Shown: positions 1 to 15,557 of the stretch, piece after piece
Layout: every line of letters begins with the position of its first letter
Position numbering within the stretch: the stretch's first letter is position 1
UHGV virus genome: UHGV-1676750
Length of the DNA: 17,536 bases
Source: a virus
Direction: 5' to 3' (one strand)
The notes under the pieces: model-generated
Told to the model about the DNA's origin: nothing
What the model saw: the letters and a program-made list of their open reading frames with translations, nothing else
Database searches by the model: none
Translations under genes and position numbers: made by a program

Positions 1-17
1 CGACGCTCTTCCGATCT
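1..17. other. Illumina TruSeq adapter remnant (CGACGCTCTTCCGATCT), a library artefact at the contig edge
   Basis: The 17 nt are identical to the 3' end of the TruSeq universal adapter (…ACACGACGCTCTTCCGATCT). They sit at the extreme 5' end, directly before the first ATG. Confidence 0.85.
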
Positions 18-20
18 ATT

Positions 21-845
21 ATGGCACAACATAATTTAAACAACATTATTGTCGATAGAGTACTACGTGGTGTATTCTCTGACAAAAATGATAGTATTAT
101 TTTTGCTCTAAATCAGGTTCAGAATCTGTCTATGAATAGCTCTTCTGAGTCTCAGGATATTGTTGACGCTCTAGGTGTATCTATTATGGAGCTGATGCGT
201 TCCAAGGCAATTGAAGTTTCTGCTGAAAATGCCATTCCCGATCTAGGATTACTAGCAGCCCAGTATGGCACTGAAAAGGTGGCTGCTACTAGCACTGATA
301 AGCTAACTGTTCCCACTATGGAATCTTTTGAAGTTCCTGCTGCCGGGGAAGATGGTAAAGTAAAATACGCTCTAAAACACACTCCTGTTACTGCTCCCAA
401 GGCTATTTATGAGCTAAATGGTGATAGCACCCTTGGTGCCCCGTATGATCCTGCTACTGATCCCGCTCCCGCTACCGAGACCGAGAGAGCAAAGTTTGCT
501 TATGCAGATGGCGTAATTACTCTACCTGATGGCACTGCTGCTGGAACTGACATGTTTGTTATGTACGAGTATGAATCTGAAAATGCTGTTGAGGTCATCA
601 ACTCTGCTAACCAGTTTGCTAAGATGGGCAAGCTCACTCTAGAGTGCTTAGTTTATGACGTGTGTGATCCTGAAACTAAGATTTTTGCTTATATCATTCT
701 ACCTCGTTTCCAGCTCAGCAATGACTTCGACTGGAGCATTGGTGGCGATAATCAGGTGCATGGTTTCTCTGGTAAGGCTCACGTTGACTATTGCCAGAAG
801 GACAAAAAGATGTGTCGTGTGGTCATTGTAGATGATGAAGAGTAA
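21..845 (+). CDS. Hypothetical phage protein, possibly a virion structural protein; N-terminus uncertain because the adapter lies directly upstream
   Basis: 825-nt ORF ending in TAA at 843-845. No RBS can be assessed because upstream sequence is adapter. Codon style and G+C resemble the downstream fibre genes. No motif I can name with confidence. Confidence 0.6.
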   Translation: MAQHNLNNIIVDRVLRGVFSDKNDSIIFALNQVQNLSMNSSSESQDIVDALGVSIMELMRSKAIEVSAENAIPDLGLLAAQYGTEKVAATSTDKLTVPTMESFEVPAAGEDGKVKYALKHTPVTAPKAIYELNGDSTLGAPYDPATDPAPATETERAKFAYADGVITLPDGTAAGTDMFVMYEYESENAVEVINSANQFAKMGKLTLECLVYDVCDPETKIFAYIILPRFQLSNDFDWSIGGDNQVHGFSGKAHVDYCQKDKKMCRVVIVDDEE

Positions 846-856
846 TTGTCGTCCCC

Positions 857-885
857 TTGACAATACAAAATTAATGTGATATACT
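857..885 (+). promoter_or_regulatory. Sigma-A/sigma-70-like promoter: TTGACA (857-862), 17-nt spacer, TATACT (880-885)
   Basis: Exact -35 consensus, 17-nt spacer and a 5/6 match to the -10 consensus, read directly. Lies in the intergenic region between ORF1 and the GIY-YIG gene. Confidence 0.5.
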
Positions 886-925
886 ATAGACGCAAGATAG
901 ATGAGGAGTAATTAACCTCATTAAT

Positions 926-969
926 AAGGCTAGGGGCCTCCACCCCTGGCCTTCTTGTAGTTATTTTTT
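926..969 (+). terminator. GC-rich hairpin followed by a U-rich tract; candidate intrinsic terminator or attenuator between the promoter and the GIY-YIG gene
   Basis: AAGGCTAGGGG (926-936) pairs with CCCCTGGCCTT (943-953): 11-bp stem with one G-U wobble, 6-nt loop. A T-rich run follows (TTATTTTTT, 961-969) but is displaced about 8 nt from the stem. Confidence 0.4.
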
Positions 970-1005
970 AATGTGGAGGAAATGGTGTTATGGAGGTAAC
1001 GAAAA

Positions 1006-1833
1006 ATGGAATATAGAACTGCGGACGCTCTTTGTGGTGTTTACAAAATTACTAACATTATTAATTGGAAAGTTTATATTGGACAGAGTATTAACATAAT
1101 GGTTAGATGGAAAGAACATGTTAATGCTTTAAATAGAAATGGTAGTAGTTGTACACTTTTACAACGGGCATGGAATAAATATGGGCAAGAGAATTTTTCT
1201 TTTGAGATTTTAGAGTTATGTTCTGAAGATATGTTGGACGAGATTGAAGTAAAATATATAGAAATATATGGTGCGTGCAACCCGAAGAAGGGTTATAATA
1301 TCGAATCTGGTGGTAATAAAAATAAGCATTTGTCAGAGGAGACAAAACAAAAACTTAGAGAAGCACATCTTGGGAAAACTATGTCTCCAGAAACCTCACA
1401 GAAAATGTCTAAATCTAGAACTGGAGAGGGCAATGGTATGTATGGTCGGCACCACACCGAAGAGGCAAAAAAGAAAATGAGTGAAGCGAAGAAAGGCAGA
1501 CCTGGACATCCGTGTAGCGATTATGCGAGGGAACGTGCCAGACAAGCTAATTTGGGCAAGATAGTATCCGAAAGAACTTGTCAAAAGCTTAGTGAATCTC
1601 ATAAGGGGAAACCTGCACATAATAAAATTATAATACCGGTATATTGTGTTGAGTTAGATAAAGTTTTTGAATGCCCATCTGATGCAGCGAAAGATCTTAA
1701 CATTAAGAACGCAACTAACATAATGGATTGTTGTAAACACATTCGCAAGACTTGTGGTGGCTATCATTGGGAGTTTGCGTATGTAATTTACCCAGATCTA
1801 TATCCCGCAATACCTTTGACAACACAAAATTAA
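1006..1833 (+). CDS. GIY-YIG family homing endonuclease with NUMOD3-type repeats and a C-terminal NUMOD1-like DNA-binding domain (I-TevI-like, free-standing)
   Basis: N-terminal GVYKITN…KVYIGQS…RWKEH matches the GIY-YIG motif, followed by YNIESGG. Four tandem [ST]-x-E-[TA]-x-x-K-[MIL]-S-x-[AS] repeats (HLSEETKQKLREAHLGK, SPETSQKMSKSRTG, HTEEAKKKMSEAKKGR, SERTCQKLSESHKGK) fit NUMOD3. The C-terminus IPVYCVELDKVFECPSDAAKDL…GGYHWEF fits the DNA-binding tail of phage homing endonucleases. RBS GGAGGT at 991-996. Confidence 0.85.
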   Translation: MEYRTADALCGVYKITNIINWKVYIGQSINIMVRWKEHVNALNRNGSSCTLLQRAWNKYGQENFSFEILELCSEDMLDEIEVKYIEIYGACNPKKGYNIESGGNKNKHLSEETKQKLREAHLGKTMSPETSQKMSKSRTGEGNGMYGRHHTEEAKKKMSEAKKGRPGHPCSDYARERARQANLGKIVSERTCQKLSESHKGKPAHNKIIIPVYCVELDKVFECPSDAAKDLNIKNATNIMDCCKHIRKTCGGYHWEFAYVIYPDLYPAIPLTTQN

Positions 1834-1862
1834 TGAACTACTGCCATGTAGTTCATTTTTTA
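1833..1862 (+). terminator. Rho-independent terminator downstream of the GIY-YIG gene
   Basis: Perfect 10-bp inverted repeat AATGAACTAC (1833-1842) / GTAGTTCATT (1849-1858) with a 6-nt loop, running straight into T6 (1857-1862). Confidence 0.7.
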
Positions 1863-1893
1863 TACCCAAAATTAACTAAAGGAGGTGCTTCCG

Positions 1894-2271
1894 ATGGCGA
1901 CAAATAACAAAACTTGTCTTTGCTGTAGTACACGTTATAGTTATTGCCCCTCATGTTCGAACGCAGATCGTCTTGCTCCTTCATGGAAGGCTGAATTTTG
2001 TTCCGAAACCTGCAAAGACCTATGGCTCACATGTACTCGCTATAATATGGGCAGACACACCAAGCAAGAAGCACAAGATATTATTAAATCTCTCCCACTC
2101 AAACCTGCTGTCGAATACGTAGCATGCGTACAAAGGGACCTGGGGGTTATCCTAAAAGAAGATCCCAAACCAAAGCGCAATAAGCGCAAACCCATCGACG
2201 ATTTTGCGGACATTACCCCCGCTCTCGTCAATGAGCCAACGAGTGAAGTAGTTTTACAAGAAAATGAGTAA
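1894..2271 (+). CDS. Hypothetical Cys-rich (putative zinc-binding) small protein with a basic KPKRNKRKP patch
   Basis: ATG at 1894 preceded by AAGGAGG (1879-1885); the ORF-track start at 1885 is a GTG inside the RBS. Eight Cys in the first 47 residues (CLCC…CPSC…C…C…C). Confidence 0.7.
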   Translation: MATNNKTCLCCSTRYSYCPSCSNADRLAPSWKAEFCSETCKDLWLTCTRYNMGRHTKQEAQDIIKSLPLKPAVEYVACVQRDLGVILKEDPKPKRNKRKPIDDFADITPALVNEPTSEVVLQENE

Positions 2272-2320
2272 ATAGGGAACTGAACTTCACACGAAACGAA
2301 GATTGGTTCCCTATTTTTTT
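2271..2320 (+). terminator. Candidate intrinsic terminator
   Basis: AATAGGGAAC (2271-2280) pairs with GTTCCCTATT (2306-2315) and is followed by T7 (2314-2320). The loop is long (25 nt) with partial internal pairing. Confidence 0.5.
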
Positions 2321-2343
2321 ACGGACAAAAAGGAGAAAATAAT

Positions 2344-2568
2344 ATGATTAAATCACTGATCACGGGCCGAGAATACGAAGAAAATAACTGCATTTATATC
2401 ACAAACATGTTGCAAGCGCAGCGCTATCTCTCCTATCTCGGCCCCGAGTACCTTTTAGATATTCTCTACACAGGTACATACAGAAAGGATTCCTTAGTTT
2501 TTGTTTTTCAGCGTTGCCCAGAGACACGCAAAGCAAAGGAACTATGGGATAAGCACGAACTAAACTAA
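2344..2568 (+). CDS. Hypothetical small protein (74 aa)
   Basis: ATG at 2344 with AGGAG at 2331-2335. No recognisable motif. Confidence 0.6.
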   Translation: MIKSLITGREYEENNCIYITNMLQAQRYLSYLGPEYLLDILYTGTYRKDSLVFVFQRCPETRKAKELWDKHELN

Positions 2569-2586
2569 AAAAGCGAGGTGTACTAC

Positions 2587-2808
2587 ATGGACGCATCCAT
2601 ACTAGAAACACTTGCTCCAATCATCGGTGATACGCCCGTATCTGTGCAAATTAGCGCAGCACTTGAGCCAATGGCCTCAAAAAACTACGTGCACGATAAC
2701 TACGTCACACTCGATGATTTTGAAGAATTAAAAAGACAATTTGAAGCGCTAGTCGGAGATACGTCTGTTTCTGAACAAATTTCTACGGCGCTTAAAAATA
2801 ATAAATAA
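2587..2808 (+). CDS. Small fibre-motif protein (73 aa) carrying two copies of the VGDT-x-V-x-x-QI module
   Basis: ATG at 2587 with GAGGTG at 2575-2580; the track start at 2578 is a GTG inside the RBS. Contains IGDTPVSVQISAAL and VGDTSVSEQISTAL. Confidence 0.65.
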   Translation: MDASILETLAPIIGDTPVSVQISAALEPMASKNYVHDNYVTLDDFEELKRQFEALVGDTSVSEQISTALKNNK

Positions 2809-2835
2809 AACAATTCGTAAAAGGATGTGATAAAA

Positions 2836-3201
2836 TTGAGCACAAAAAAACTGCAAGTTTTAGATTATAAAATTAAGCAGGCTGAAAACGCTGATACTGT
2901 AGATAATAAGCACGCTTCTGACTTCGCATCCGCTACTGATATGAGCACGGCGCAAAATAATATTAGCGACCTTCAGGCAAAAGTCGGAGATACGCCTGTA
3001 TCTACGCAAATTACAAATGCTATCTCTTCAAACCGTATAGTTTACGTTCAAAACGAAGAGCCAGTTGATGCACCACCTGGATCGCTATGGGTGAATTTAG
3101 AATTGCAAAATACGGATGACTTTGTATCTGTTTATAAAGAAATTTTAATATTTGGAATACAATACGTTGCGCTTGTTGATAGTGATACTTTGATAATATG
3201 A
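2836..3201 (+). CDS. Short tail-fibre-like protein with one VGDT module and an EP…PPGSLW motif
   Basis: Probable TTG start at 2836, 10 nt after AAGGA (2821-2825); the GTG at 2827 is too close to the RBS. Contains KVGDTPVSTQITNAI and EEPVDAPPGSLWVNLE. Confidence 0.6.
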   Translation: MSTKKLQVLDYKIKQAENADTVDNKHASDFASATDMSTAQNNISDLQAKVGDTPVSTQITNAISSNRIVYVQNEEPVDAPPGSLWVNLELQNTDDFVSVYKEILIFGIQYVALVDSDTLII

Positions 3202-3211
3202 GGTGATGATA

Positions 3212-4171
3212 ATGGCAGATATAAGTAAAATTAATATTAAGAATGAACAATATGATATTAAAGATAATATCGCACGAACACATATAGCGAGCACAAGTAA
3301 TCCTCATGGCGTTACAGCTGAACAGGTCGGTGCAAGACCTGATACATGGATGCCTACAGCTGAACAGGTCGGTGCCGTAACGCCTGCGGAACTCAACGCC
3401 GCCATCCGCAAAGCCGCCCCGAGGAATCTGCTGGACAATTCCGATTTCAGGAATCCGGTGAATCAGAGGGGGCAGACGACATACACAAATAACGGTTACA
3501 CGATTGATCGATGGGAGCTATACAGTGGATTGATTGGCGTTTCTTCGGATGGTTATGTATCCACTAATGGACAAATGTATCAGAAAATCGAAATCGCCAC
3601 GGATAAAGTATATACATTTGCGGTCAAAACTGCCGCTGGAATAGCGGCTGTTACGGGAATCCCGGCAAACGGCGCAATCAATCCAGCAACGATTGGCAAC
3701 GCCTTGATTAAACTTGCTACGATTGGAGAGTATGTGGAAGTGGTCATCGAACCGGCTGAAGGATTCGATTTTGCTGGAGCATACTGGGCAGCCCTGTACG
3801 AAGGCTCTTACACTGCGGATACCCTTCCGGAGTACAAGCCGAAGGGGTACGGCGCGGAGCTGGCGGAATGTCAGAGGTATTACCAGCAGTTTTTAAACAA
3901 TGCGTTTTTAGGTTGGGCGACTGTTGATGCAGATGGCATTAACTTTCAGGGAATGATTCCCTGCGGCAGTATGCGGATTAATTCCCCCACGATTCTTGGC
4001 GGAATCTCCGCATGGACAGGCTTGGTTTCAATTGGCGTTTCTTCAGTTACAGTCTTTAATTATCAGGGCAATGGGATGCGGATTAACGGGTGTTTGGCGA
4101 GCAGCACAACGGCTGGCAGTGTCATTGCGATTTATGCTGCGGAAACGGTTGCATTTTCCGCTGACCTGTAA
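3212..4171 (+). CDS. Tail-fibre protein with a GC-rich, probably horizontally exchanged, C-terminal domain
   Basis: ATG at 3212 after GAGGTG. N-terminal SNPHGVTAEQVGA…PTAEQVGA is a duplicated fibre-type motif. G+C rises sharply from about 3340 onward (67% counted for 3361-3420). Confidence 0.7.
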   Translation: MADISKINIKNEQYDIKDNIARTHIASTSNPHGVTAEQVGARPDTWMPTAEQVGAVTPAELNAAIRKAAPRNLLDNSDFRNPVNQRGQTTYTNNGYTIDRWELYSGLIGVSSDGYVSTNGQMYQKIEIATDKVYTFAVKTAAGIAAVTGIPANGAINPATIGNALIKLATIGEYVEVVIEPAEGFDFAGAYWAALYEGSYTADTLPEYKPKGYGAELAECQRYYQQFLNNAFLGWATVDADGINFQGMIPCGSMRINSPTILGGISAWTGLVSIGVSSVTVFNYQGNGMRINGCLASSTTAGSVIAIYAAETVAFSADL

Positions 4172-4185
4172 AGGAGGAATGACAA

Positions 4186-4563
4186 ATGGAATATGAAAAT
4201 CCCTATATCGTGTATGTGAAAACCAATTCCAGCGGCTACATCACCGCCGTCAATTCCTCCGCTTTCCTGACGGACACTACGGACTGGACAGAAATCGACA
4301 GCGGCTATGGCGACAAATACCACCACGCGCAGGGAAACTACTTCCCCCAGCCAATCATCACCGACGGTGGTGCATACCGATATCGTCTGGTGGATGGAAA
4401 GCCTGTGGAATGTACCGCAGAGGAGATTGCGGAGCAGGAGGAGGCAATCAAATCTTCTATTATTACTGTACCAACTGCCGAGGAGCGCATTGCAGAGCTT
4501 GAAGCGCAGAATGAAATGTTACTTCAATGCGTACTCGAAATGAGTGAGACAGTTTATGCGTAA
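4186..4563 (+). CDS. Hypothetical protein directly downstream of the fibre gene; possible fibre-associated or chaperone-like protein (assigned by position only)
   Basis: ATG at 4186 with AGGAGG at 4174-4179. Shares the elevated G+C of the preceding fibre C-terminus. Acidic, helical-looking C-terminus. Confidence 0.55.
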   Translation: MEYENPYIVYVKTNSSGYITAVNSSAFLTDTTDWTEIDSGYGDKYHHAQGNYFPQPIITDGGAYRYRLVDGKPVECTAEEIAEQEEAIKSSIITVPTAEERIAELEAQNEMLLQCVLEMSETVYA

Positions 4564-11963: not shown

Positions 11964-12451
11964 TATATGGCAATGCAACTGGTGGCTTTGGAATGCCAAA
12001 GTCATTTGTTTTAACAGATGATAGTGGAAATGAAATGACAGGGGTTGTAACTGGTGAACAAGTTGTATTTACAGCTGGTTTAAGCGATATTAGAGCGGGT
12101 AAGGTTGCAGCCAATGCAGATGGTATTGTTACTGGTACGAAAGATATACCAGCATATCATACTACAGAAGGTCATCGAGTAATTACACCTGGAAGTGATT
12201 GTAAAATCTATATTCCTAATTACGAATATACCGGTTTACAAGCTATAGTTTGTTCATACAATACCTCTTTAGATGATAGTGTTGCCGCTAATCAAGTTGC
12301 CATTAAAGGCAATTTATATAATGTACAATCTGTAGACATATTATCTATAATTAGTATAGATAATACAGATCAGTGTATTAATTTAGGGATTACAAACACA
12401 ACTGATAATTTATTAATTATTAGATATTTTAGTTATAAGGAGATTTTATGA
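11960..12451 (+). CDS. Hypothetical protein (163 aa), Gly/Thr-rich N-terminus
   Basis: ATGA overlap with the upstream gene; AGGAGGT at 11944-11950. AT-rich (about 22% G+C counted for 12301-12360). Confidence 0.7.
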   Translation: MIYGNATGGFGMPKSFVLTDDSGNEMTGVVTGEQVVFTAGLSDIRAGKVAANADGIVTGTKDIPAYHTTEGHRVITPGSDCKIYIPNYEYTGLQAIVCSYNTSLDDSVAANQVAIKGNLYNVQSVDILSIISIDNTDQCINLGITNTTDNLLIIRYFSYKEIL

Positions 12452-12690
12452 TGGAAACGAGACGTTATGCATATAATTTTGCAGAAATTGATAATGCCAC
12501 TAATATGTGTATTGGTGTTATAACTACTACAGATCCAAACACAGAAGGTCCAACTGGTGGTGGAACAACTTTTGTTGCAATTCCAGTATATGATGAGAAT
12601 TATTCTTTAAAATATTACAATTGGGATAATGGTAAATTTTATTATGACTCTGCGTATACACAGGAGTACATTTCTCCATTACTACAATAA
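12448..12690 (+). CDS. Hypothetical small protein (80 aa)
   Basis: ATGA overlap with the upstream gene (translational coupling). No named motif. Confidence 0.6.
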   Translation: MMETRRYAYNFAEIDNATNMCIGVITTTDPNTEGPTGGGTTFVAIPVYDENYSLKYYNWDNGKFYYDSAYTQEYISPLLQ

Positions 12691-12712
12691 TTAAACAAAG
12701 GGGCGACGGATT

Positions 12713-12883
12713 ATGAATAAATATTTCTATTGTTATAGCTATCCATTAAAAGAATTTTTCAAAAAAAACGGCTTAAGTTACATTACCGCCGCTACGAATC
12801 ATTCAACAAATAAAACGTATTGGTTGTTTGAAGGATCTGAAAAATTAAATATGTTATTACAAAAATGGCGTTTAAATAAATAA
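12713..12883 (+). CDS. Unannotated small ORF (56 aa), hypothetical; absent from the ORF track because it is under 60 aa
   Basis: ATG at 12713 preceded by AAAGGGG. Translates to MNKYFYCYSYPLKEFFKKNGLSYITAATNHSTNKTYWLFEGSEKLNMLLQKWRLNK. Contains an A8 run at 12761-12768. The stop codon is embedded in the hairpin at 12862-12893. Confidence 0.4.
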   Translation: MNKYFYCYSYPLKEFFKKNGLSYITAATNHSTNKTYWLFEGSEKLNMLLQKWRLNK

Positions 12884-12900
12884 ACGTCATTTTCTATTTT
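12862..12900 (+). terminator. Candidate AT-rich intrinsic terminator
   Basis: AAAATGGCGTTT (12862-12873) pairs with AAACGTCATTTT (12882-12893): 12-bp stem with one G-U wobble and an 8-nt loop, followed by CTATTTT. The stem is AT-rich, hence modest stability. Confidence 0.4.
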
Positions 12901-12928
12901 ACAAATGATGTTTTGGAGGTAACTAAAG

Positions 12929-14266
12929 ATGAAGAAGTTGACGCATGAAGAATTTATTGAGAAAGTAACGAAACTCAACGAACATGTTGCAAATGGTGAG
13001 ATAGAAATATTAAGTCAGTATATAAACCAAAGAACTAAAATTAAATGTAAATGTGCCATACATAATACTATATGGGAGAGATCGGTACAAAGCCTTTACG
13101 AAAATAGTGGTTGTGAAGATTGTAAATATGAATTAAGTGGAAGAAAAAGACGGTTTTCACATGAAGAATTTGTTGAAAAGATAAAGGTTTTAAATGATGA
13201 AATTATAGTTTTGGGACATTATACAACGATGAATAAATCAATTGAATTTCAATGTAAATTTGGTCATATATGGACAGCCAAGCCTTATAGCATTATCAAT
13301 GGGCATCAATGTCCATATTGTGCTGGGCAAAAACCTATAATTGGGAATAATGACTTATGGACAACAAGACCAGACGTTGCAAGTTTATTAAAAAATCGTG
13401 ATGACGGATATGGTTTGATGGAATTTAGTCAGCGTAAAGTAATATTTATTTGTCCAACATGCGGTAACGAAATCATAAAATCAGTTCAACGTGTATCAAT
13501 AGATGGGCTTGTTTGCCAAAGATGTTCTGATGGTGTATCATATCCGAATAAATTTGCAAGAGCATTTTTAAATCAACTACTTGGTAATAATTTTAAATGT
13601 GAGTATCAACCTGATTGGGCCAAACCATATTATTATGATAATTATTTTGAATATGGTAATAAGAAATATATTTTGGAGATGGATGGCAGTTTTCATTATA
13701 TTTCAAGACAGTTGACCAAACAGTCTCTTGATGAACGAAAAAGGATTGATGCATTAAAAGATAAACTTGCTGAGCAACATAATATTCGTGTTATTCGTAT
13801 AGAGTGTATAAAATCTAATTGTAATTACATAAAGAATAACATTTTACAATCCGAGTTGAGTTTAGTTTTTAATTTATCTAAGATTAATTGGGATTTATGC
13901 GACCAAATGGCGCAAAGAAGTTTGGTTAAAGATGTTTGTAATTTATATATGAACGGAATAAAAGATTTGCATAAAATAGCAGAAATATTGCATATTAGCA
14001 AAAGTACGGTATATGTATATTTGGTTAGAGGTTCTAAGTTTGGATGGTGTGATTACGATGGGAAGAATGCTCATTACTTGAAAATTTCTATTCCAATAAT
14101 TGTACTTGATGAAAATAACAATGCTATACATAAGTTTGATAGTATTAGTGCGTGCAAAGAAGAGATGAAAAAAATGTACGGATATTCATTTGATAGAAAT
14201 ACTTTGAAAAAAGCTTGTGAGTATTCTATTTCATATCATGGATTTAACTTTAAATATGCGTATTAA
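12929..14266 (+). CDS. Multi-domain homing-endonuclease-like protein: tandem zinc-ribbon modules, a Vsr/DUF559-like PD-(D/E)xK nuclease core, a helix-turn-helix and a NUMOD1-like C-terminal DNA-binding domain
   Basis: Two ~60-aa repeats ([TS]HEEF[IV]EK…LN…C-x-x-H…W…G-x-x-C-x-x-C) and a third CPTCG…CQRCS module. KKYILEMDGSFHYI…DERKRIDALKDKLAEQHNIRVIRIE resembles the DUF559/Vsr-like endonuclease motif. KIAEILHISKSTVYVYL is HTH-like. The C-terminus IPIIVLDENNNAIHKFDSISACKEEM…YHGFNFKY parallels the C-terminus of the GIY-YIG protein. Very AT-rich. RBS GGAGGT at 12915-12920. Confidence 0.65.
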   Translation: MKKLTHEEFIEKVTKLNEHVANGEIEILSQYINQRTKIKCKCAIHNTIWERSVQSLYENSGCEDCKYELSGRKRRFSHEEFVEKIKVLNDEIIVLGHYTTMNKSIEFQCKFGHIWTAKPYSIINGHQCPYCAGQKPIIGNNDLWTTRPDVASLLKNRDDGYGLMEFSQRKVIFICPTCGNEIIKSVQRVSIDGLVCQRCSDGVSYPNKFARAFLNQLLGNNFKCEYQPDWAKPYYYDNYFEYGNKKYILEMDGSFHYISRQLTKQSLDERKRIDALKDKLAEQHNIRVIRIECIKSNCNYIKNNILQSELSLVFNLSKINWDLCDQMAQRSLVKDVCNLYMNGIKDLHKIAEILHISKSTVYVYLVRGSKFGWCDYDGKNAHYLKISIPIIVLDENNNAIHKFDSISACKEEMKKMYGYSFDRNTLKKACEYSISYHGFNFKYAY

Positions 14267-14336
14267 CAATACAAAATTAATGTTTAAAGTAATTAGTGAA
14301 ATAATAAAGTCTAAAATACTAAGGAGGAGTTTATAT

Positions 14337-15557
14337 ATGTCTAACCCCAATTTCAATCCTACGTATAGCTCGAACTTAATTTGGAGAGATGAAGACGACA
14401 CTCGTTGTATTACTGATGACCTAGATAATATCGAATCCGACATCACTGCACTCGAAACAGGCAAGGCCGACACTAACCATACACATACCGGATATGCTAC
14501 TACAGATCACACTCATACAGGCTACGCCGCAGCAGATCATACCCACACTGGCTATGCGGCGGCTGCAGACGTAACTACACTACAAAATTTGGTTGGAGAC
14601 ACTAGTGTATCTTCTCAGATCAGTACGGCTATTGCGGGCAAGGTTGATGCTGTGGAAGGTAAAGGCTTGTCTACCAATGACTATACGACAGCCGAGAAGA
14701 ATAAGCTTACTGGAATTGATACAGGAGCTAACAATTATGTGCTTCCAACTGCAAGCAGCACTACTCTTGGCGGTATTAAAACTGGGGATAACATTACTAA
14801 TTCGTCTGGTACGATTAGTCTAACAAAAAGCAATGTCACGTCAGCTTTAGGATATACTCCATTTGGCAGTAGTACGTTGTCAATGGCCAATGGTGGTACT
14901 GGCAGCGCTCAGGTTGTTAATGCTCCAAAGAATGCCATATTGAAGAAGGCAAACGATGGGAACTATGTGTGGTATACTCAGACAAAAAGTGGGGCTTTCT
15001 ACGCTACTGCAACAGATGGAGTTCCGAAATTCGGTGTACTGCCCAAGGCATTAGGTGGCACAGGTGCGGATTTCAGTAATATTCCAGCTAATGCTATTAT
15101 TCGTAATTCTGGTTCTGGCGGTAGTGACTTGTACTATTTTGCAACTGGCAATGGGGCATGCTATGCCACATCAGCTAATGGGTATCCGACTTTTGGTACA
15201 TTGCCCGTAGCGCAAGGTGGCACTGGCGAAACTACTGCTTGGACAAATGGTACAGTTACGAGTTTGAATAGTACTACTATTACATCATACCAATTTGCTG
15301 TTTTCCCCTATTTAAATAAGGCATTTATTAGGCTTAATGTGCTATTAGGTAGTGCTTTAGATGCTGACGAAGCTAGATATATAGTAATGCCGTCAACTGT
15401 TGCAACTGCACATACTGCTTTGTCTTGCTTTAATATTGCTGGATATGATATTCATTGTGGTATGGCTAGCGATAGTGGCATTTATGTAATTAATTGTGGT
15501 ACTGCTTCAATGCCCAATACTGTACGTCTTTATATTGCGGGATGGTATTCAATCTAA
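14337..15557 (+). CDS. Tail-fibre protein with an HTHTGYA triple repeat, one VGDT module and repeated GGTG motifs
   Basis: ATG at 14337 with AAGGAGG at 14321-14327; the track ORF from 14217 overlaps the upstream gene and lacks an RBS. Contains NHTHTGYATTDHTHTGYAAADHTHTGYAAA, LVGDTSVSSQISTAIAGKV, and three L-x-x-x-GGTG motifs (MANGGTGSA, PKALGGTGAD, PVAQGGTGET). Confidence 0.8.
   Translation: MSNPNFNPTYSSNLIWRDEDDTRCITDDLDNIESDITALETGKADTNHTHTGYATTDHTHTGYAAADHTHTGYAAAADVTTLQNLVGDTSVSSQISTAIAGKVDAVEGKGLSTNDYTTAEKNKLTGIDTGANNYVLPTASSTTLGGIKTGDNITNSSGTISLTKSNVTSALGYTPFGSSTLSMANGGTGSAQVVNAPKNAILKKANDGNYVWYTQTKSGAFYATATDGVPKFGVLPKALGGTGADFSNIPANAIIRNSGSGGSDLYYFATGNGACYATSANGYPTFGTLPVAQGGTGETTAWTNGTVTSLNSTTITSYQFAVFPYLNKAFIRLNVLLGSALDADEARYIVMPSTVATAHTALSCFNIAGYDIHCGMASDSGIYVINCGTASMPNTVRLYIAGWYSI
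14475..14564 (+). repeat. Three tandem 30-bp coding repeats, each encoding [ND]HTHTGYA-x-x
   Basis: aaccatacacataccggatatgctactaca / gatcacactcatacaggctacgccgcagca / gatcatacccacactggctatgcggcggct. Confidence 0.75.

Follow-up and report, generated by a model that had tools for sequence, protein, structure and literature searches.

A covariation-supported three-way-junction RNA leader at a polymorphic homing-endonuclease site beside a capsid-like gene of human-gut phages

The stretch of DNA analysed here, a 17,536-nucleotide (nt) part of virus genome UHGV-1676750 that we refer to as the window, carries an open reading frame (ORF) at 1006-1833 for an I-TevI-like GIY-YIG/NUMOD3 homing endonuclease. 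According to an earlier, sequence-only reading, this free-standing gene has its own promoter, a terminator-like hairpin with a U-rich tail that suggests attenuated or tightly limited expression, and a strong terminator. Each of these features lies where that reading placed it. We find that the hairpin is instead one arm of a three-way-junction RNA leader that is maintained by compensatory changes in related phages. We consider it probable that the ORF sits in a polymorphic dock of human-gut phages (contigs of roughly 150-170 kb), where the dock supplies the expression signals and nuclease ORFs are swapped at the start codon. The endonuclease alone is an ordinary, routine member of a known family, as phages commonly carry free-standing homing endonucleases; what is new is its setting, with one site by the capsid gene, four nuclease families and one covariation-supported leader without an Rfam match. 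Both this conserved leader and the dock for swapped ORFs are new variations on known themes. The leader and the signals around it are the following.

857-885, + strand: sigma-70/sigma-A-type promoter, TTGACA-17-TGaTATACT with an extended -10, one of the copies of the consensus of this phage family
854-876, + strand: left copy of a 23-nt direct repeat (-35 plus spacer of the promoter), matching 1813-1835
892-958, + strand: three-way-junction RNA leader, from RNAalifold on a MAFFT alignment, covariation and a covariance model
892-897 with 953-958, + strand: P1, the closing helix of the junction
900-906 with 916-922, + strand: P2, a junction helix
907-915, + strand: P2 loop AGUAAUUAA with the self-complementary hexamer UAAUUA at 909-914, from homologue comparison
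927-935 with 944-952, + strand: P3, a junction helix, formerly read as the terminator-like hairpin
936-943, + strand: P3 loop GCCUCCAC, anti-Shine-Dalgarno-like, with 7 nt of complementarity to box 1 and 6 nt to the Shine-Dalgarno sequence
973-979, + strand: box 1 (GUGGAGG), putative pseudoknot partner of the P3 loop, with complementarity that covaries across homologues
991-997, + strand: Shine-Dalgarno (SD) sequence UGGAGGU, read from the sequence, 8 nt before the ATG
1006-1833, + strand: GIY-YIG/NUMOD3 homing-endonuclease ORF (275 aa), from domain, structure and homologue matches
1813-1835, + strand: right-hand member of the direct-repeat pair, with an orphan -35 and spacer but no -10, overlapping the last codons and the stop
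1832-1861, + strand: intrinsic-terminator-like stem-loop with a T-run, part of the constant 3' flank

The RNA structure at 892-958 was recovered by two alignments. When 16 distinct leaders were aligned with MAFFT, without fitting to any covariance model, RNAalifold returned the three helices: 94.7% of the pair cells hold standard pairs, as compared with 45-54% when the partners are slid, 20 of the 23 pairs have changed on both sides, and none of 500 shuffles reaches any of these measures. A covariance model made from this alignment retrieves 50 copies, 28 of them distinct. In the second alignment, which was fitted to the model and comprises the 28 distinct homologues, pairing is kept in 96.7% of the pair cells and compensatory changes are seen in 22 of 23 pairs, again with none of 500 shuffles as good; slid-partner controls give 41-54% pairing over both alignments. 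Compensatory changes are seen in six or seven of the seven P1 pairs, and the UAG at 898-900 is invariant. The window copy scores 83.7 bits against the model. Folded alone, the 74 nt from 889 to 962 adopt the junction shape at -31.6 kcal/mol (z=-4.43), with none of 200 shuffles as good. The Rfam search gave no match in the window at gathering thresholds, and searches at permissive E-values yielded no credible match to the leader (within 700-2000 the lowest E-value, 0.48, was to unrelated snoRNA models). Likewise, in a related locus with a group I intron (L116; related loci are given L numbers), this intron was the sole Rfam match and the leader was unmatched.

When approximately 1.9 Mb of DNA from relatives was searched with the covariance model, each phage had a single junction copy, always just 3' of the capsid-like gene. 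The search found no junction near a second nuclease ORF of the window (12929-14266) or near other nuclease genes. The idea that the leader generally travels with nuclease genes was therefore rejected, as the model places the junction at this locus only.

Both apical loops carry signals of their own. The P2 loop is 9-10 nt long among homologues and contains, always at the same position, a hexamer that is self-complementary in 28 of 28 distinct homologues. Its variants are five perfect palindromes (TAATTA, TAGCTA, TGATCA, TCATGA and TCGCGA) and TAATTG, which relies on a U.G wobble. Since the hexamer is unable to pair within its own loop and we found no consistent second copy in cis between -400 and +1500, the simplest reading is that the loops kiss between molecules or that a symmetric ligand binds them.

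The P3 loop, with a CCUC, CUCC or UCC core in homologues, is complementary to box 1, which lies 7-15 nt after P1. The two partners change together: CCUCCAC:GUGGAGG, CUCUCAU:AUGAGAG, UGCCUC:GAGGCA, UCUCCUA:UAGGAGA, UCCGAA:UUCGGA and AAUCUCCAC:GUGGAGAUU. The cognate complement averages 6.3 nt, as compared with 4.76+/-0.32 nt for permuted partners (none of 20000 permutations reaches it) and 3.5 nt for shuffled targets, which implies a predicted pseudoknot. The same loop is also complementary to the SD region of the ORF that follows, including its flanking bases (GAGAGGUAA, GAGGUU, GGAGGCG, UGGAGAU); here the cognate complement is 6.29 nt against 5.17+/-0.32 nt for permuted partners (p about 6.5e-4). 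In length, these stretches equal or exceed the match of the SD to a canonical 16S anti-SD tail, the sequence of which we supplied for this comparison. The minimum free energy (MFE) fold leaves 991-997 outside any stable hairpin with upstream sequence. We also considered whether box 1 could serve a conserved upstream mini-ORF as its SD, and rejected this by eye: mini-ORFs exist in the window and in four other loci (L004, L026, L038 and L268), with inconsistent frames, starts and presence.

The genes on either side of the cassette, as well as their counterparts in other phages, define the site.

21-845, + strand: capsid-like virion structural gene, the left flank, ending ...VVIVDDEE* (PHROG 2729, E=9.7e-15)
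1894-2271, + strand: conserved cysteine-rich gene of 125 aa, the right flank, with homologues in 24 loci

The flanks have no match among 50,697 cultured-phage records, either by blastn with positions 1-4200 or by tblastn with the capsid-like protein, and the relatives were for that reason taken from IMG/VR and metagenomes, where the capsid-like gene has homologues at more than 80 IMG/VR loci. Comparison with homologous phages, which had been proposed as a check on the cassette, finds it missing from between the two flanking genes: in L001/L002 and L003, with capsid identities of 78% and 73%, approximately 90-115 nt with a terminator hairpin only separate the capsid-like gene from the cysteine-rich gene. 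The window's cysteine-rich gene is 54% identical to the gene directly after the capsid-like gene in L002. The cassette is thus polymorphic for presence and absence. It is also intergenic and not intron-borne, in line with the earlier description of the gene as free-standing. The possibility that it is embedded in an intron was checked and did not hold: Rfam detects no group I intron in the window, both flanking genes are complete and stand adjacent to one another in relatives, the capsid-like gene ends in the same ...VVIVDDEE* in cassette-free relatives, and the cysteine-rich gene next to the cassette has its own start.

Across 80 capsid loci the junction leader is present in 41, and in 38 of these 41 it is followed by a nuclease ORF or pseudogene; conversely, all 38 nuclease-bearing sites have the leader. 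The ORFs behind it are of four types, namely GIY-YIG, a DUF4379 zinc-finger protein with HNH, and two other DUF4379 zinc-finger nuclease types. Where the leader is absent and the cysteine-rich gene was found, the gap from the capsid-like gene is 46-116 nt, except in L251, L253 and L254, where it is 501 nt and, by eye, group-I-intron-like sequence stands at the end of the capsid gene. Decayed nuclease copies occupy the site in L242/243/267 and L244/246, and in L112/L265 the leader is fused to the 3' remnant of a zinc-finger ORF. L005 (6800-6900, the same contig region as L218) has an empty site with a promoter remnant (AATTAATGTGTTAAAT), where a hairpin with the P3 stem, GGGCTAG/CTAGCCC, is the sole stem-loop behind the capsid gene; the site has the look of a dock reduced by deletion. 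Such decayed copies and remnants fit the known invasion and decay cycle of homing endonucleases.

The leader follows the phage and not the ORF. In L004 the same promoter and leader stand after the capsid gene, both hairpins with compensatory changes, and an unrelated 442-aa zinc-finger ORF lies behind them. Identity of the window leader is 82% with the L004 leader, which precedes a different ORF, versus 69% with the leaders of L235 and L271, which precede the GIY-YIG orthologue. The GIY-YIG protein itself is 66% identical between the window and the L235/L271 clades, and the adjacent capsid protein 45%. By eye, similarity switches at the start codon. As the leader tracks the phage backbone and ORF similarity switches at that point, ORFs appear to have been exchanged into a resident leader.

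Group I introns occur near the 3' end of the capsid-like gene in some relatives (L116 at 2194-2513, L108/L258, L112, L006/L256 and L251). Against RF00028 the L116 intron reaches 74.9 bits, and for the rest we relied on split tblastn matches and shared sequence. L006 apparently has two introns in this gene, which is uninterrupted in the window.

The promoter at 857-885 consists of TTGACA (857-862), a 17-nt spacer and TATACT (880-885), with TG at 877-878; it matches at 11 of 12 positions and is the top-scoring sigma-70-type match of the whole window. Promoter-like matches in the window are not above chance (48 found, 55 expected), so the credibility of this one rests on its perfect match to the consensus cTTGACAATACAAAATTAATGTGnTATAAT, which is repeated across the contig family of these gut phages. 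The 18-nt promoter core occurs in 92 IMG/VR stretches, several times per contig, on contigs of roughly 80-170 kb. A -10 hexamer follows the -35 by 16-18 nt in 45 of 65 distinct core contexts (by 17 nt in 43), and 31 of these 45 have the extended -10 TG. Many unrelated genes lie behind these copies. The promoter predicted earlier is thus credible, but it does not belong to the endonuclease specifically, because the same consensus precedes so many other genes.

The matches in metagenomes are from human-gut assemblies. The metagenome scan used a pattern with CCTCYC P3 loops only (five loci) and missed window-type CCTCCA loops, a gap that was partly filled by the scan of viral contigs. At least five copies of the promoter 18-mer are found on JAZRQP010000051.1 (162,567 nt; L161/L198/L201/L207), which is binned with a Faecalimonas metagenome-assembled genome (MAG) and is a possible complete relative. 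The 18-mer was also matched in MAGs that bear the labels Lachnospiraceae, Acetatifactor, Agathobacter or Clostridia. Taken together, the MAG contigs that bear the 18-mer hint at a Lachnospiraceae host. The remaining matches in the genome collection are mostly single and scattered over unrelated taxa, and we took them as chance.

The family promoter is also seen in other settings. In L002 (~3112), L003 (~2928 and ~3397), L004 (~1490), L010, L015 and L089 it lies inside intron-like sequence a few kb upstream of the capsid gene (...AATCAGCAGC...[promoter]...AAAGGTTCAACGACT...), and in L003 and L007 a nearby LAGLIDADG-like ORF (…NYFDKIDTPNKAYILGFLYADG…) holds the 18-mer within its coding sequence. 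Behind the same promoter at another locus, L032, L034, L041, L050 and L080 have a different conserved, apparently structured leader (AAAAGTGGGACAGC...GTTGAA...CCACTTTTATTTT), which may be another unannotated RNA element of these phages.

The 20-mer TTGACAAYACAAAATTAATG is present three times in the window (at 857, 1816 and 14263; 0.02 expected). Around the first two of these, the copies of the 23-nt direct repeat match at 91%, are 959 nt apart and bracket the cassette. The right copy runs into the terminator stem, a perfect 10-bp helix of 1832-1841 with 1848-1857 (z=-5.66, none of 200 shuffles as good). Since the T6 run at 1856-1861 includes the last two stem bases, four T remain unpaired after the stem. 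A promoter motif without a -10 also ends cassettes with other ORFs, where it is read in different frames (LTTQN*, NNTKLTCAS* and LNNTKLMCAQ*) and is degenerate in the rest, and in relatives one type of terminator stands behind both GIY-YIG and zinc-finger ORFs. Cassette-free sites have a terminator hairpin at the equivalent position before the cysteine-rich gene. The perfect stem with its T6 run, noted earlier, is hence real, but as it and the 3' motif are common to cassettes of different ORF families, they are part of a constant frame and are not the endonuclease's own. Target-site duplication is an unlikely origin of the direct repeat, the right copy being common to other-ORF cassettes and a clear copy being absent from the cassette-free sites that we read. 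Recombination may have produced the repeat-bracketed cassette; the cassette-free sites that we read hold no clear single copy of the repeat.

By computation, the product of 1006-1833 is an I-TevI-like GIY-YIG/NUMOD3 homing endonuclease, as the catalytic motif and repeats had suggested. Pfam gives GIY-YIG (PF01541, E=2.3e-8, 34.6 bits against a cutoff of 22.6) and NUMOD3 (PF07460, E=1.1e-14, 54.5 bits, two stretches significant), PHROG 314 'homing endonuclease' matches at 5e-50, and the I-TevI catalytic domain (1MK0) aligns with the N-terminal domain at E=2.8e-8. Within the printed 1MK0 alignment we identified GVY13, Y24IG, R34 and H38 by eye; E81 and N98 lie outside it and were assigned from the sequence, completing the catalytic Tyr/Tyr/Arg/Glu/Asn set under what we take to be the I-TevI residue numbering. 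The C-terminal module comprises 4-5 NUMOD repeats: four clear copies of SxExxxKxSxxxxG, with first residues 110, 127, 151 and 188 (three found via a regular expression, the remainder read from the sequence) and a degenerate fifth at residue ~174. Residues 222-256 give a weak I-HmuI NUMOD-like match (16.9 bits) that is below the cutoff. Cultured-phage homologues found by tblastn are approximately 31-33% identical and are annotated as GIY-YIG or I-TevI-like endonucleases. The G+C content is 0.33-0.40 in the ORF region versus ~0.41-0.46 in the flanks.

In the model that we favour, the dock would contribute the promoter, a structured leader of ~90 nt, the SD sequence and, at 1813-1861, the orphan 3' motif with the terminator; the leader would combine the junction with a pseudoknot formed by the P3 loop on box 1. 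Transcription is predicted to start most likely at ~892, in which case the transcript would begin with P1. If it behaves like the products of the seg genes of T4 (PMC2988022), the nuclease would cut cassette-free relatives near the junction during co-infection and be copied in by repair. We infer from the complementarities that the leader controls translation: with the P3 loop on box 1 the SD would be free, with the loop on the SD it would be blocked, and this switch would set low or conditional translation of the nuclease. The P2 palindrome could form RNA-RNA kissing dimers or bind a symmetric factor, and may add a dependence on concentration or on a factor. We tentatively propose, as a possibility falling somewhat short of an even chance, that 892-979 represents a new cis-acting phage RNA class, uniting a junction, a pseudoknot, an anti-SD loop that toggles between decoy and SD, and a dimerisation-competent loop, and acting as the constant dock for swapped nucleases.

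Three alternatives have to be weighed against this model. The attenuation proposed earlier, in which a dedicated promoter followed by the hairpin at 926-969 keeps a toxic nuclease low, is unlikely. The hairpin does exist, is GC-rich (926-953, 11 pairs, 7 of them G-C) and passes a terminator-like scan; a U6 run follows it by ~10 nt in the window and in L004, and the hairpin kept in the empty site of L005 has the same stem. However, it does not stand alone as a terminator, being P3 of the junction. What had been taken as its U-rich tail, the TCTTGT at 953-958 directly after the stem, is the 3' strand of P1 and pairs with 892-897, with the compensatory changes of P1. After P1, most homologues lack a U-run and have only UUU or UUA-type sequence, and a conserved unpaired U-tract directly after the GC-rich stem, the mark of an intrinsic terminator or attenuator, is therefore absent from 926-953. 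The paired tail and the missing U-runs argue against simple attenuation, and so does the P3 loop, the sequence of which is irrelevant to a terminator and yet is conserved and covaries with the downstream boxes. Limited or regulated expression of the nuclease remains plausible; if it occurs, translation (the loop with the SD or box 1) is a likelier level than transcription attenuation. Far less probable still is an action of the DNA alone, with the P2 palindrome as the operator of a dimeric repressor and the repeated 20-mer as a protein-binding site. Such an action would account for the P2 region being a near-complete DNA palindrome with a palindromic centre and for a promoter spacer conserved far beyond the needs of a promoter, and I-TevI is known to autorepress via an operator over its own promoter (PMC2988022). 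On the other hand, the stems retain their pairing although their sequences change freely, only the + strand is rich in G.U pairs (at one P2 pair, 20 of 28 sequences have G.U), and the TAATTG variant is self-complementary only as RNA; one leader for four unrelated nuclease families also argues against autoregulation by the encoded protein.

The main rival, although we regard it as doubtful, is that the junction RNA is an element of the phage backbone with its own function, for instance a small RNA, a 3' stabiliser or terminator of the capsid mRNA, or the leader of the operon of cysteine-rich and tail-fibre genes, and that nuclease ORFs merely borrow its signals. Several points weigh against our model here. 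Two loci keep the junction and box 1 without a nuclease ORF: L268 (4379-4511), where a two-codon mini-ORF (ATG AAA TAA) and then the cysteine-rich gene follow, the latter after 62 nt, and L277 (4328-4611). The RNA may thus have a nuclease-independent function, and it may predate the nucleases or outlive them. The complementarity of loop and SD could partly be a by-product of the pairing with box 1, since P3 loop and box 1 are both SD/anti-SD-like. Even the closest relatives share just 73-78% identity in the capsid-like protein, and the presence and absence of the cassette is thus not a comparison between near-isogenic genomes. Furthermore, the leaders share a phylogeny, and the shuffle statistics therefore overstate their independence. 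A backbone element would also suit a leader that follows backbone phylogeny rather than ORF type, occurs once per genome and always adjoins the capsid gene, as well as a second nuclease ORF (12929-14266) that has no such leader; the free-standing endonucleases of T4, too, often use host signals (PMC2988022). Against it stands the fact that about half of the related phages do without the RNA, with capsid and cysteine-rich genes adjacent, for which it is evidently dispensable. Moreover, every nuclease at the site stands behind the junction RNA, and the bases flanking the nucleases' own SD covary with the P3 loop.

The second nuclease ORF lies in a second low-GC island of the window (12200-14300, GC 0.28-0.33). 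It encodes a 445-aa DUF4379 zinc-finger nuclease-like protein (PHROG 559 'HNH endonuclease', 6e-44) that is 39% identical to the ORF in the capsid-side dock of L004, and it ends in the third copy of the promoter motif (14263-14282). A block at the ribosome-binding site (RBS), TGGAGGTAAC, is common to this junction-free ORF, the L004 leader and the window leader. Several small ORFs past the cysteine-rich gene (2578-2808 and 2827-3201 among them) and a tail-protein-like ORF (14217-15557) share the peptide motif (V/I)GDT(P/S)VSxQI, as do homologues in related phages. Positions 1-17, just ahead of the capsid-like ORF that starts at 21, read CGACGCTCTTCCGATCT, which we take to be the tail of the Illumina TruSeq adapter, so that the window would presumably begin at an untrimmed contig end.

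If the leader does control translation, it would be a portable, ORF-independent RNA device that restrains a toxic selfish nuclease, and new nucleases could be installed without evolving regulation of their own. With 28 distinct variants, this ~90-nt RNA is a compact and diverse subject for structural work. The dock also offers a concrete case of promoter-repeat-bounded module exchange outside T4-like phages.

Parts of the dock resemble known systems. In the dimerisation initiation site of HIV-1, a 9-nt loop is built from two nt, a 6-nt self-complementary sequence and one nt, and its variants keep self-complementarity. The P2 loop has the same 2 + 6 + 1 layout with an apical hexamer kept self-complementary by compensatory change; it differs in belonging to a phage mRNA leader rather than a retroviral genome and in its AU-rich hexamers, and its dimerisation is a prediction. 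In the IncI-alpha/IncB plasmids, whether repZ/repA is translated depends on a pseudoknot in which a hairpin loop pairs just upstream of the RBS and activates translation. The P3 loop would likewise pair with sequence just upstream of an RBS, but from a three-way junction instead of a single stem-loop, with no antisense RNA partner known here.

The repeated promoter recalls the PeSLs of T4-like phages, in which a highly conserved, strong sigma-70-like promoter is present many times per genome together with stem-loops (PMC2839356, PMC4122927). Comparable units of motif and terminator are found in L022, L024, L033, L071, L073 and L083 and at 1816-1861 of the window, and in both systems direct repeats bracket variable genes and could mediate modular shuffling. 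The two systems differ in phage family and in motif, the right-hand copy in the window lacks a -10, and PeSLs lack a three-way-junction leader; for the dock, mini-circles and recombination products would be predictions. Upstream of the junction in L268, by eye, a stem-loop lies between -35-like and -10-like hexamers, a PeSL-like layout.

The closest parallels are with T4. Like the seg genes and I-TevI, the window ORF joins a GIY-YIG catalytic domain to NUMOD-type DNA-binding repeats, and like seg genes it is intergenic rather than intron-encoded and is present in some related phages and absent from others; segD even lies directly after the major capsid gene 23 (PMC2988022, Table 1), much as the window cassette follows the capsid-like gene. 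Unlike these, it encodes a protein that is ~31-33% identical to cultured-phage homologues and whose activity and target are predictions, in a phage family without a DNA match in the 50,697-record collection. Regulation at the RNA level is also familiar from this group: for I-TevI, I-TevII, I-TevIII, segB and mobE of Aeh1, upstream RNA is complementary to the RBS of the potentially toxic nuclease (PMC2988022, section 12), and in the T4 system a local hairpin contains the RBS, with a late promoter inside the hairpin relieving the block (PMC2988022). The leader described here shares an RNA upstream of the ORF that is complementary to the nuclease RBS. It departs from that arrangement in that the RBS is outside any local hairpin, unsequestered in the MFE fold and complementary to the loop of a junction helix ~50 nt upstream, in that a second box competes for this loop, and in that the promoter lies upstream of all helices of the structure.

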